Shown here: positions 24,869 through 28,303 of the stretch, piece by piece
Layout of the letters: every line of letters starts with the position of its first letter
How positions within the stretch are numbered: the first letter of the stretch is position 1
DNA from: Candidatus Heimdallarchaeota archaeon
Lineage (GTDB): Archaea; Asgardarchaeota; Heimdallarchaeia; Heimdallarchaeales; Heimdallarchaeaceae
NCBI GenBank assembly: GCA_019057815.1
Contig: JAHLWR010000001.1
Span: 240,233 to 304,232, forward strand
DNA: 64,000 bases
Direction of reading: 5' to 3'
The notes under the pieces: generated by a model
Database searches by the model: none
The model's input: only the letters and a program-made list of their open reading frames with translations
What the model was told of the DNA's origin: nothing
Program-made: the position numbers and the translations under genes

Positions 24869-25387
24869 TCATTCTTTGAACATAGCATTTTCTTGTCTAA
24901 GCATTCGTTTTTTCATCGGGTGGTTACTTTTTCCTGCAAATTTACCTATTTTACCACTAGAAAGAATTACTCTATGACAAGGAACTATTGGCCCAAATCT
25001 GTTTTTCATCATAACATTGCCAACAAAACGAGCGCCATACGGAACGCCAACTCTTTTGGCTAGTTCTCCATAGGAAACAACTTCTCCTGCAGGTACTTTT
25101 AGAAGTTCATTTAAAACATCAATTTCTTTTTCCGTAAATCCACTAAAATCAAAATTAATTTTTGGTAAATCAAAAGATGTGCCATTCACAATATCATTGA
25201 TAGCATCTAAAATTGGATGATCTCTTTCTTCAATTTCCACTTCTTCTTTTGCTATTTTTGATAAATATGCAACAGCTTCTTTTTTGTTTTTGAAAGAATA
25301 AGAAGTATAATATAATTTTTCTTCATTAAGAAGTATACCTGTCCATGAATCCTTATTTTTTGATACAATAATCTTCATCTTATACAC
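24869..25387 (-). CDS. ogt: Methylated-DNA--protein-cysteine methyltransferase
   Basis: SYGELA, ARFVG, PCHRV active site. Confidence 0.9.
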   Translation of the reverse strand: MYKMKIIVSKNKDSWTGILLNEEKLYYTSYSFKNKKEAVAYLSKIAKEEVEIEERDHPILDAINDIVNGTSFDLPKINFDFSGFTEKEIDVLNELLKVPAGEVVSYGELAKRVGVPYGARFVGNVMMKNRFGPIVPCHRVILSSGKIGKFAGKSNHPMKKRMLRQENAMFKE

Positions 25388-25440
25388 AACATTTTTCTAT
25401 TATTTCACTATATAAAACTTACATCAGAAAAAGGGTAATA

Positions 25441-26490
25441 GTGAAACAGCTGAAAGAGAAGATGCTCAAATACCTTAAAAAGGCGTGTCCAAACAAAAAA
25501 GATTTACAAATCAACGAATTTTGCAATATTACTACTGGATGGGAGACAGAGATATTTTCGTTTACACTAGTATTTCAGGAAAATGGAAACGAAAAGCAAG
25601 AAGAGTTAATCTTAAGGATGTATTTAGGTAATTTAGCAGAAAATAAAGCTGTGAAAGAATACAAATCTATGAAAAAACTTTTTGAAGCAAAATATCCAGT
25701 TCCTGAACCCTTGTTGGTTGAAAAAGATTCATCTATTCTAGGAAAACCTTTCATGATGATGGAGAAAATTGATGGAGAAAACATGGGAAAAAGGTTTCTT
25801 ATAGCACTTGAAACTAGCGATCAAGAAATAATTGACAACATGATAATACCCAAGTTTTGTGAACTTTTTATTAATCTTCATGATTTGGATTGGGTGTCTA
25901 TTTCTGATGAAAGAATCAAGCATGTATACTCAAATCCATACAGTTTCATAGTAAACCATCTATCCAATTTTGAAAAGAAACTTGATTATTTCAATAAGGG
26001 GGAGCTAAGACCGATTACCAAATGGTTAGCAGATAGAATAATAAATGTTCCTTGTTATAAAATGTCAGTTATACACCAAGATTTTCACCCTCATAACATA
26101 CTAATAACTAAAAACGAAAGATATTATGTTATAGATTGGTCAAGTTGTAGTATTGGAGATTTTAGATTAGATTTGGGGTGGACATTACTACTAACATATG
26201 CTTTCACATCAAAAGAAATTCGAGATAAAATCTTATCGACATATGAAAATCTATCTGGGTGGAAAGTAGAAGAGATTGAATTCTTTGAAGTTTTAGCTAT
26301 TTGTAGAAGATTATTTGACATATCTATCTCATTTAATCAGGGAGCTGAAGAGCTAGGAATGCGTAAACAAGCAGTAGAAAAAATGAAAGAGAGTGGTTTT
26401 CATATAAAGAGGGTTTATTCTTTATTGCAAGAAAAAACTGGTATCTCAATAAAAGAGATAGAAAACCTAATTAGAGAAATATCAGAATAG
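25441..26490 (+). CDS. APH/choline-kinase-like phosphotransferase
   Basis: HQDFHPHN (Brenner motif), IDW, GD..DL. Confidence 0.85.
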   Translation: MKQLKEKMLKYLKKACPNKKDLQINEFCNITTGWETEIFSFTLVFQENGNEKQEELILRMYLGNLAENKAVKEYKSMKKLFEAKYPVPEPLLVEKDSSILGKPFMMMEKIDGENMGKRFLIALETSDQEIIDNMIIPKFCELFINLHDLDWVSISDERIKHVYSNPYSFIVNHLSNFEKKLDYFNKGELRPITKWLADRIINVPCYKMSVIHQDFHPHNILITKNERYYVIDWSSCSIGDFRLDLGWTLLLTYAFTSKEIRDKILSTYENLSGWKVEEIEFFEVLAICRRLFDISISFNQGAEELGMRKQAVEKMKESGFHIKRVYSLLQEKTGISIKEIENLIREISE

Positions 26491-26646
26491 AAAAACGTTC
26501 TATCTTGATATTTGGCAATTTTTAGTTGCCAAATGAGCATTTTCCATTTTCTGTAAAATCTATTAATCATTATGTAACCTCAAAAAAATCTCGAAAAAAG
26601 ACAATAAAATATAAATAAAAAGTCTACAAAGATAAATGGGATAAAA

Positions 26647-27168
26647 ATGTCAGATAATAGTAAAACTGGTAACTGGACAAAAATCATTAAAGCAGTCAGA
26701 ACACCTATTGCTTATTTCACTCTTTTGGCACTTATTATTGAATCAACCCTTATTGCTTTAGGAAAAGACCATATTGAAGTTGTAATTGGTGGATTGGCGC
26801 TAATAGGTTTACTCATAGTTGTTGTTGGACTTATTTTATGGAAGAAACCTGAAGTCTTCAATCCTAAAACACCGTTTATCATTGGTTTTGATTTTCCTAA
26901 TATTGTAGATCTCAATGTTGATCAATGTACAATGCTAGTTCGTGACAACGTGCAAGAAAATAAATATAAGGGAAGGGCTAATATTACAGACGACTTTGGA
27001 AACTGGGTTCTTTCGTTGAATCATCCAAATTCCCCTTTGACTGTTGATTATTCAGACTCAATTGATATTACACTTGTTGAAATGCCGGATGATAATGGTA
27101 ATATAAAAAAGTGGACAACACGTCCATTTAAAGTCAATAAAATTCTAAAAAAGGTGAAAAAGCTATGA
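26647..27168 (+). CDS. Hypothetical protein, two N-terminal TM helices + beta-rich soluble domain
   Basis: Hydrophobic segments at about residues 20-38 and 44-65; stop overlaps next start (ATGA at 27165-27168). Confidence 0.75.
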   Translation: MSDNSKTGNWTKIIKAVRTPIAYFTLLALIIESTLIALGKDHIEVVIGGLALIGLLIVVVGLILWKKPEVFNPKTPFIIGFDFPNIVDLNVDQCTMLVRDNVQENKYKGRANITDDFGNWVLSLNHPNSPLTVDYSDSIDITLVEMPDDNGNIKKWTTRPFKVNKILKKVKKL

Positions 27169-27467
27169 ATAAACAAATAGAATTCAAATTTAACAATGAT
27201 GCAAAATCCTTGCCTAACATCTCTAGAGGAAACTACACATGGTATGAATGGACAATTTATATGGACGAAGACGATTCTAAACTGGATTCAGTTGATAAAG
27301 TCGAGTACCACTTACATCCAAGTTTTCCTGATCCGATTCAAGTTGTAACAAACCGTGACACAAAGTTTGCTTTTAGTGCAAGAGGATGGGGAACATTTCG
27401 AATTGATATCGTAATCTACCTCAAAGATGGTACAGAAGCACATGCTCATCACAATCTTAAGTTCTAG
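27165..27467 (+). CDS. Stand-alone YEATS-domain protein (prokaryotic YEATS)
   Basis: YEWTIY...VDKVEYHLHPSFPDP...FSARGWGTFRIDIVI matches the YEATS pattern (HxWxVY...V.KV.F.LH.SF..P...F.....GWGEF); AAGGTGA SD. Confidence 0.88.
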   Translation: MNKQIEFKFNNDAKSLPNISRGNYTWYEWTIYMDEDDSKLDSVDKVEYHLHPSFPDPIQVVTNRDTKFAFSARGWGTFRIDIVIYLKDGTEAHAHHNLKF

Positions 27468-27610
27468 ATAGCTTAAGAAAACAAATACTATTTCACCGCT
27501 AATAGAATCGGAAAATTGGCAGAAAAATCACTAAAGAATATATTACTAGGAAATTACAGACATTAATAGCAAGGAAAGCACTACTTCTCACATAAGGATA
27601 TAGATAAACT

Positions 27611-28303
27611 ATGGATTCGGAAAAAAAAGTTAGTTTTCCTTATAGAGGAGAGCACATTGAAGGGATAATCAAACGATTGAATCGGAAAACAGTAACAGTC
27701 ATTGTCAATGATCAGATTCTATTTAGAGTACCTTACCAATTATTAACTCCAATAATTAAACCTCCTCTGAAAAAAAACATGAAAAAGAATGCTTATACAA
27801 ATAAAAAATGGACAAAAGAGCAGAACAGAGATTATAAAAAGTCCAATAATGCGGAAATTTATTTACCATCTAAGAACACGTTAATATCATTAAAAACAAA
27901 TGTAAAAATGCTTGCAAAGACGTTAAAAAATGAAGACAATATCATGATAAAACAATACTCAAATAGTATTATAGAGGAACTAAATACTGAATATAAACTT
28001 CCCTCATTGCCAGTATTTACTGGTGGAAAACGAAGATTAACAAGAAGTGGGAACCAATATTATGGTGTTCATAGAACAAGAGGAGGAGAAAATAAACATT
28101 CATCAATTTCGGTATATAGTAGAACAGCTAAAACGCAAAAATATGTAGCTCCTAAGACCTTTTTGAGAACGCTAATTCATGAGTGGTCTCATTCTTTCGA
28201 TAGGTATAAGTTGAAATTATCAAGCACTTATCATACAAAAGGATTTTACGAACGAGTTAACTTAATTTACAACGAGCTAAAAAAGCCTTTAGAAAAAAAT
28301 TGA
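27611..28303 (+). CDS. Zincin metalloprotease, SprT/WLM-like, with N-terminal SH3-like barrel
   Basis: FLRTLIHEWSH...YHTKGFY (HExxH plus downstream H...F); very basic. Confidence 0.65.
   Translation: MDSEKKVSFPYRGEHIEGIIKRLNRKTVTVIVNDQILFRVPYQLLTPIIKPPLKKNMKKNAYTNKKWTKEQNRDYKKSNNAEIYLPSKNTLISLKTNVKMLAKTLKNEDNIMIKQYSNSIIEELNTEYKLPSLPVFTGGKRRLTRSGNQYYGVHRTRGGENKHSSISVYSRTAKTQKYVAPKTFLRTLIHEWSHSFDRYKLKLSSTYHTKGFYERVNLIYNELKKPLEKN

Follow-up and report, generated by a model that had tools for sequence, protein, structure and literature searches.

What does a YEATS domain, a principal type of acyl-lysine reader in eukaryotic chromatin, do in an archaeon in which its gene is coupled to that of a small membrane protein? 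The locus that raises this question lies in a 64,000-nucleotide stretch (hereafter, the window) of the genome of a Candidatus Heimdallarchaeota archaeon (assembly GCA_019057815.1, contig JAHLWR010000001.1, positions 240,233 to 304,232 of the forward strand) and comprises two forward-strand genes, open reading frame (ORF) A of 173 aa (window positions 26647-27168) and ORF B of 100 aa (27165-27467). Together they form a compact two-protein system of 270 residues whose reader pocket may govern a membrane effector. A Heimdallarchaeota YEATS gene has been cited as a hint of histone-mark reading in Asgard archaea, whereas the gene described here belongs, as one of two, to a mobile cassette that bacteria also carry, and its tie to a membrane (or TIR) protein via an unnamed adaptor changes what the Asgard gene is evidence for. 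The pair is most likely a conflict module and not a chromatin reader; the specific reading that we favor, a sensor-plus-effector conflict module made of a pYEATS sensor, a beta adaptor and a membrane effector, we hold at a probability of about one half. The general idea of pYEATS domains with transmembrane (TM) or TIR partners has already been predicted computationally, and what is new here is the beta adaptor with its two-TM-helix (2TM) module, a documented effector swap, the insertion in an Asgard genome and the consequence for the idea of an archaeal histone reader.

A coupled gene pair encoding a 2TM protein and a stand-alone YEATS domain

ORF B is a stand-alone pYEATS domain, as had been stated in a preliminary description of this DNA that was made from the sequence alone. 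It matches the pYEATS family PF20305 over the full length of the profile, positions 1-73, with 81.6 bits (E 3.7e-23; cut-off 26.9), and also passes the threshold of the eukaryotic YEATS family PF03366 (E 5.4e-16, 58.7 bits, cut-off 22), and the top 50 Foldseek PDB matches of its AlphaFold2 model (predicted local distance difference test, pLDDT, 91) are all YEATS domains, led by those of Taf14 (TM-score 0.77, 30% identity), GAS41 and Yaf9. A profile of paired pYEATS domains likewise matches Yaf9, GAS41, AF9, YEATS2 and Taf14 with E-values from 3e-13 to 1e-8. The candidate ligand pocket of ORF B is composed of Y32 and two motifs, L-H-P-S-F (H51, S53, F54) and G-W-G-T-F (W75, G76, F78), and its residues Y32, H51, S53, F54, W75 and F78 align with the aromatic cage of AF9, which we take to be F28, H56, S58, F59, Y78 and F81. 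F54, W75, G76 and F78 are invariant in 15/15 paired pYEATS, and the acyl-lysine-type cage of ORF B is intact. ORF B thereby resembles the eukaryotic readers AF9, ENL, GAS41, YEATS2, Taf14 and Yaf9 in fold (TM-score 0.77, 24-30% identity) and in the common cage motifs L-H-x-(S/T)-F and G-W-G-x-F, but differs from them as a 100-aa stand-alone domain that lacks chromatin-complex partner domains and is coupled to a membrane protein. Weak matches of ORF B to PtuA in PADLOC (E 0.0086, 26 residues) and to a Ribonuclease family (E 0.085) were taken as chance.

The AlphaFold2 model of ORF A (pLDDT 87, from an alignment of 50 sequences) bears out the preliminary assignment of two TM helices followed by a beta-rich soluble domain. 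It shows a short N-terminal helix (residues 8-16), two long helices (20-37 and 42-66) and an all-beta domain (77-169), which together with the homologue alignment delimit an N-terminal membrane module of aa 1-70 (26647-26856) and a C-terminal beta-sandwich of aa 72-173 (26860-27165), the adaptor domain linked to pYEATS. The membrane module is built in the order of amphipathic helix, (T/S)PLGFF-type motif (here TPIAYF), TM1, a tight loop (residues 38-41 in the model and 4-6 residues across the family), TM2 and a K-P-x-(L/F) motif. An acidic residue in the middle of TM1, E32 in ORF A and D/E in 43/50 homologues, would be unusual if the hairpin were a mere anchor, and in the beta-sandwich we found conserved W120, D137, W156 (50/50) and F161. 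Because Lys/Arg residues cluster ahead of TM1 and past TM2, the positive-inside rule suggests that both ends of the protein, and hence the beta domain, face the cytoplasm on the same side as pYEATS.

Neither half of ORF A has a name: the protein lacks a Pfam family at E<=1, YLATT is not among the Pfam families of its 50 homologues, and the SLATT and CyanoTRADDas_TM profiles match neither ORF A nor the homologues. Fold searches with the beta domain return only generic immunoglobulin-like (Ig-like) sandwiches at Z about 6 (DUF4876, carbohydrate-binding modules and pilins), and in the ESM Atlas a shape search gave only generic fimbrial or Ig-like folds (TM-score <0.45), while the search by features gave no usable match. 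Both the 2TM module and the beta adaptor constitute domain families of their own for which no library has a name. The top Foldseek rows of ORF A are Kir/KirBac channels, which share with ORF A the layout of a cytoplasmic Ig-like beta domain behind a pair of TM helices; with E>=7e-3, a root-mean-square deviation of 17-19 Å, no pore helix or selectivity filter and a loop of 4-6 residues, we regard this as an architectural likeness only.

The two genes overlap by the start/stop tetranucleotide ATGA (27165-27168), and a Shine-Dalgarno-like AAGGTGA (27151-27157, its GGTGA 7 nt 5′ of the ORF B start codon) lies inside the 3′ end of ORF A, two features that the preliminary description had noted. In related pairs, the two genes overlap by up to 11 nt or stand up to 16 nt apart (-11 to +16 nt), and an ATGA-type 4-nt overlap is found in six pairs (the window, L012, L016, L018, L073 and L074). 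The coupling is not a chance arrangement, because gene order and junctions of this range recur in every related locus examined. Each gene is present in a single copy in the 3.7-Mb, 95%-complete genome.

Inheritance of the pair as a unit in archaea and bacteria

An exhaustive profile search with ORF A gave 549 matches at E<=1e-3, 57 of them also reaching E<=1e-10, among which about 50 are full-length relatives of 160-190 aa. Within Asgard archaea, pYEATS is present in 10/301 sampled species genomes, and half of these (5/10) carry an ORF A homologue with 22-35% identity to ORF A directly 5′ of it; they comprise one genome of the same genus (G157), another of the same family (G199) and three Thorarchaeota. 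When counted from the beta-domain gene, pYEATS comes next on the same strand in every locus with downstream room, amounting to about 26 distinct loci (the window, G157, L012-L015, L016-L022, L024-L032 and L038, together with the bacterial contigs L047, L049 and L050) from Heimdallarchaeota, Thorarchaeota, Hodarchaeota, Bathyarchaeota and bacteria. All full-length relatives with a contig that extends further 3′ show this arrangement, those of P0007 and P0024 included. The bacterial origin is evident from the contigs themselves, one of which also encodes YajC, YbeY, L21/L27/L31 and GatC and another a TonB-dependent receptor. Counted in reverse, the beta-domain gene lies directly 5′ of 6/6 looked-up stand-alone or short pYEATS genes, including one from Bathyarchaeota BA1 that is annotated as a "YEATS family protein". 

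The distance matrices of the two proteins correlate across 20 loci (Mantel r 0.78, a value reached in 0/5000 permutations), and the two genes are therefore inherited as a unit; this correlation shows joint inheritance and does not by itself imply physical contact. No third conserved gene emerged from an all-against-all BLASTP comparison of the neighbors, and no fusion of the beta domain to pYEATS was found among 151 retrieved profile matches. The preliminary description had proposed a minimal two-part system; the co-conservation seen in this neighborhood survey agrees with a dedicated pair, and a lack of co-conservation elsewhere, which that description had named as an argument against its own proposal, does not apply. 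Prediction of a complex between the beta domain (68-173) and pYEATS returned a score of 0.00 in a run that had no controls and that counts neither way on binding.

Other Asgard pYEATS lack the beta partner and come in two forms, one of 114-115 aa with a C-terminal Y-D-L-P-K-D-D-G tail that adjoins unrelated TM proteins and another of 194 aa in which a single TM helix is fused to pYEATS (L004:1453-1800, L008:1417-1761 and L009:1468-2052).

This distribution bears directly on the idea that the Asgard YEATS domain reads acylated lysines on histone tails and that the upstream gene is incidental. Such histone-tail reading has been proposed by Henneman et al. 2018 (PMC6136690) for HeimC3_47440 of Heimdallarchaeota LC_3 and for a Bathyarchaeota YEATS protein, and it would fit with a cage that is the same as in eukaryotic readers, with a score of ORF B above the eukaryotic YEATS cut-off and with solved YEATS domains as its best structural matches. 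Yet the coupling to a membrane protein is kept in bacteria, which have no histones, and the very BA1 homologue named in PMC6136690 is preceded, at a distance of 5 nt, by the same TM-beta gene. The gene is furthermore absent from most relatives of this archaeon, and its 95%-complete genome yielded no histone-fold gene with PF00808 or PF00125, the two queries used, although the control genomes did give matches. We therefore consider a chromatin reader highly improbable.

The beta-sandwich as probable adaptor and the exchange of 2TM and TIR modules

The N-terminal TM module of the upstream protein occurs without the beta domain in 82/151 retrieved proteins, in which it is combined with NUDIX, 2H phosphoesterase (DUF1045), nucleoside-deoxyribosyltransferase-like, HEAT or CyanoTRADDas_TM domains and with weak PLD- and CHAT-like regions, and pYEATS neighbors none (0/13) of the metagenomic loci whose protein has the TM module only. 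In Bathyarchaeota BA1, conversely, the beta domain (E 1e-28) follows a TM segment of another kind. Because TM-only loci lack pYEATS and the BA1 beta domain sits on another TM segment, pYEATS tracks the beta-sandwich and not the TM module, and we infer that the beta-sandwich may be an adaptor onto which pYEATS docks.

The TM module itself, a (T/S)PLGFF-type 2TM unit of ~70 residues, is widespread and unnamed (P0050, P0085, P0094, P0135, P0146, P0074 and P0039) and deserves a family definition of its own. It stands in tandem in P0039 and P0050, and P0074, a relative of the N-terminal module, carries a separate CyanoTRADDas_TM domain elsewhere in its chain.

The clearest view of the adaptor comes from a Hodarchaeota locus (L065:3130-4567; JBHLJW010000081.1) where a 293-aa TIR_2 protein contains the beta domain at residues 163-285 and its gene overlaps by 11 nt that of a 188-aa pYEATS protein with a C-terminal winged helix-turn-helix (wHTH)-like extension. 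This beta region is 31% identical over 123 aa to the 2TM-beta protein of L073 (BLASTP E 8e-18), also matches the 2TM-beta protein of L075 (E 4e-9) and is recognized by the family profile (hhalign E 1.9e-5, probability 78%). An HSDR_N gene of the type I restriction kind lies upstream of the TIR-beta/pYEATS pair, and the same assembly encodes the 2TM-beta/pYEATS pair of L075. Since the beta-domain match lies behind a TIR domain, TIR and 2TM hairpin take the same position on a common adaptor beside the same partner, an effector swap such as conflict systems show. In CBASS, Pycsar and Thoeris-type systems, it is typically at the effector positions that TM and TIR modules replace each other. Compared with such TIR-pYEATS cassettes, ORF A has its 2TM module where L065 has TIR_2, while the beta adaptor and the pYEATS partner are common to both.

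Further variants of the conflict type speak for the same reading, e.g., the bacterial locus L016:1359-6093 (GCA_016178185.1) where a TIR-AAA_16 protein (679 aa) is followed by a 155-aa gene of unknown nature, a 2TM-beta gene and a pYEATS-nSTAND2/AAA_22 NTPase (460 aa), so that the TIR-AAA protein lies two genes upstream of the fused pYEATS-NTPase pair. In the L016 pYEATS, the cage His is replaced (L-P-P-S-F). Other pYEATS fusions involve PG_binding_1 and HEAT. Several bacteria carry PG_binding_1 N-terminally on the paired pYEATS without a signal peptide (P0169, P0171, P0172, P0179 and P0198; L066:4001-4522; L027), which puts a peptidoglycan-binding module to odd use in the cytoplasm. 

Paired pYEATS proteins of 182-188 aa form a subfamily with a conserved C-terminal extension that gives weak TrmB/Cmi2-type wHTH matches (E about 2e-3, below the cut-off). 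They invite an explanation by ordinary regulation, in which the 2TM-beta protein would hold pYEATS at the membrane in the manner of an anti-sigma factor until acylation or a metabolic change releases or recruits it, and in which members of the ~185-aa subfamily, once released, would act on DNA via their helix-turn-helix-like extension. The mostly housekeeping contexts of the pair and the role of the TM module as a general anchor on many enzymes fit this explanation, as does a class I/II-type deacetylase gene (PF00850) located 480 nt 3′ of the Bathyarchaeota BA1 pair (L064:4782-5606, LIHJ01000022.1), a single case that bears on the question of an acyl-lysine ligand. A regulatory tether accounts less well for the patchy, insertion-like spread over 6/400 Asgard genomes, for the presence of the same adaptor on a TIR protein beside a restriction-type gene and for the existence of STAND and TIR variants; moreover, the pYEATS of the window is without a DNA-binding part, and the deacetylase neighbor was seen only once. 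On balance, membrane tethering for regulation is the main rival of the reading that we favor, but seems rather unlikely to us.

Insertion of the cassette into a conserved gene block

Where the pair resides in the window, it interrupts a gene order that is otherwise kept. In the sister genus, 8/8 genomes have the kinase and the 230-aa gene only about 55-75 bp apart with no gene between them, and 8/8 loci show the order of MGMT-like gene, APH kinase and 230-aa protein. Because these two genes directly adjoin in all eight sister-genus genomes, the cassette is an insertion into a conserved MGMT-kinase-zincin block in this genus, and the flanking genes are not its partners. The inserted segment delimited by this comparison (26491-27610, forward strand) consists of the two-gene cassette with its flanking spacers and extends from the APH-type kinase (ending at 26490) to the 230-aa HExxH gene (starting at 27611), and the same insertion is present in G157 of the same genus. 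The preliminary description was right to place the pair between a kinase and a zincin, but it took these neighbors for non-core genes whereas both belong to a conserved syntenic block of the family; with kinase and zincin directly adjacent in relatives that lack the pair, the local context also loses the weight that it had been given as support for a role in defence.

Order and spacing of the MGMT-like DNA-binding gene (reverse strand), the APH-type kinase (forward) and the 230-aa HExxH gene (forward) are family-wide (window 24869-28303; L054-L063). The 230-aa HExxH protein is found in 24/31 family genomes, has no Pfam family and looks like a lineage-specific conserved metalloprotease-like protein.

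Across Asgard archaea, the beta domain occurs in 6/400 species genomes from two families, a pattern typical of an accessory element that spreads horizontally. The pair is an autonomous, horizontally mobile two-gene cassette shared with bacteria. Insertion scars are not apparent at the cassette: its GC content is unremarkable and convincing terminal repeats are missing, the only repeats found being a 12-nt imperfect inverted pair and one 14-nt direct repeat that resembles the start of the next gene.

A tightly coupled two-gene unit of autonomous mobility and with no third gene is also what a toxin-antitoxin-like pair would look like, the membrane protein being a toxic pore or holin-like protein and pYEATS its stoichiometric inhibitor that responds to no external ligand, and toxin-antitoxin genes (HicAB, ParE) indeed lie near one bacterial copy. 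We judge this quite unlikely. A role as inhibitor only would leave the strict conservation of the cage (F54, W75, G76 and F78; 15/15) unexplained, and the same is true for the fusions of pYEATS to STAND, HEAT and PG_binding_1 modules of the sensor type; besides, type II systems do not usually have the toxin gene ahead of the antidote gene.

A possible sensor-effector mechanism and its relation to known systems

In the sensor-plus-effector module that we favor, translational coupling would ensure that pYEATS is made in step with the product of ORF A, whose beta-sandwich would dock it as an adaptor. The pYEATS domain would be the sensor, in line with its treatment elsewhere as the ligand-binding sensor domain of conflict systems (bioRxiv 10.64898/2026.10.19.760177), and its aromatic cage might accept a protein-borne acyl-lysine-like amide or else a planar small molecule, e.g., a nucleotide derivative. 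The signal of the bound ligand would pass via the adaptor to the N-terminal module, whose hairpins would oligomerize in the membrane, as TIR domains would assemble in the sister system, and the oligomerized hairpins would then depolarize or permeabilize the membrane with abortive infection or dormancy as the outcome. The proposal of a sensor with a membrane effector had already been made in the preliminary description, and it retains the support of an intact YEATS pocket and of a membrane part at the position taken by TIR in the Hodarchaeota pair, while the local context and the analogy to Cap15 no longer speak for it.

Several observations weigh against this reading. A defence function is a prediction for all members of the family; the window locus is not a defence island, and most genomic contexts of the pair are ordinary housekeeping genes and not defence islands either. 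No source of a signal was found, with no cyclase at any related locus and no linked TIR in this genome, where the sole TIR_2 match is of marginal strength (28.4 bits against a threshold of 28) and falls within a 978-aa open frame of another contig (G000:C46:74817-75092, L076). ORF A matches no model of PADLOC-DB 2.0, and viral contigs scanned for the TM and YEATS motifs contained no relative, which establishes no tie to viruses either way. Finally, the TM module could be an anchor only, since it is also found on enzymes such as NUDIX and 2H that would themselves be the active parts.

Among known systems, the closest relatives are those that Burroughs and Aravind reportedly predicted in 2020 (J Bacteriol) as pYEATS conflict systems with TIR or a three-TM partner, YLATT (PF20303). 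The pair resembles these systems, all of them predicted, in that a small mobile operon unites a TM or TIR protein with a YEATS domain read as sensor, but it differs from the pYEATS-YLATT type by the 2TM hairpin with a distinct beta adaptor in ORF A, by its Asgard host and by the lack of a TIR or signal-making enzyme linked to it in the genome. PF20303 itself has no match in this genome, nor did it match in control genomes. A literature search found no paper describing the 2TM-beta/pYEATS pair, and the accessible portions of the text and supplement of Kaur et al. 2020 do not contain the term "pYEATS".

Similarly, the TM effectors of CBASS, Pycsar and Thoeris (Cap15, Cap14 and SLATT-type) are, like ORF A, small 2TM proteins with a cytoplasmic beta domain that binds a ligand or partner, and in those systems, too, one kind of sensing part can bear either a TM or a TIR effector. 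Unlike in these arms, there is no cyclase or nucleotide synthase at any of our loci and no SLATT or Cap15 sequence match; as had been noted in the preliminary description, neither cyclase nor TIR is nearby, in that no CD-NTase or other nucleotide synthase was found in the window flanks or annotated related loci and no TIR is linked in the genome. A further difference is that the Ig-like sandwich appears to dock a protein (pYEATS) and not a nucleotide. The specific analogy to Cap15 of CBASS that had been drawn for ORF A was not upheld, given a generic Ig-like sandwich (best Z about 6), the lack of a linked cyclase and blank results for ORF A in PADLOC and Pfam, though the fold searches list only generic Ig-like sandwiches (Z<=6) and absence of a Cap15-like beta-barrel from that list does not exclude this fold.

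A wider idea, which is speculative and seems unlikely to us as a whole, would cast pYEATS cassettes as immune or stress switches of prokaryotes that recognize an acyl-lysine-type mark (e.g., on an invader protein) and fire a membrane or TIR effector via the beta adaptor, with eukaryotic YEATS domains descended from such an Asgard-borne sensor and not from an archaeal histone reader.

Minor features of the window locus

Two short elements lie in the spacers around the pair. Past pYEATS, the 14-nt ATAGAATCGGAAAA (27502-27515) has near copies at the next start codon (27611-27624, 86%) and 65 nt beyond it (27676-27689, 93%). A target duplication during insertion may have left this motif behind, or it may be a chance occurrence in AT-rich DNA. 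On the other side, a TATA-box-like TATAAATA (26610-26617, forward strand) is positioned ~30 nt 5′ of the ORF A start codon, a placement that would result in a leaderless or very-short-leader mRNA for ORF A.

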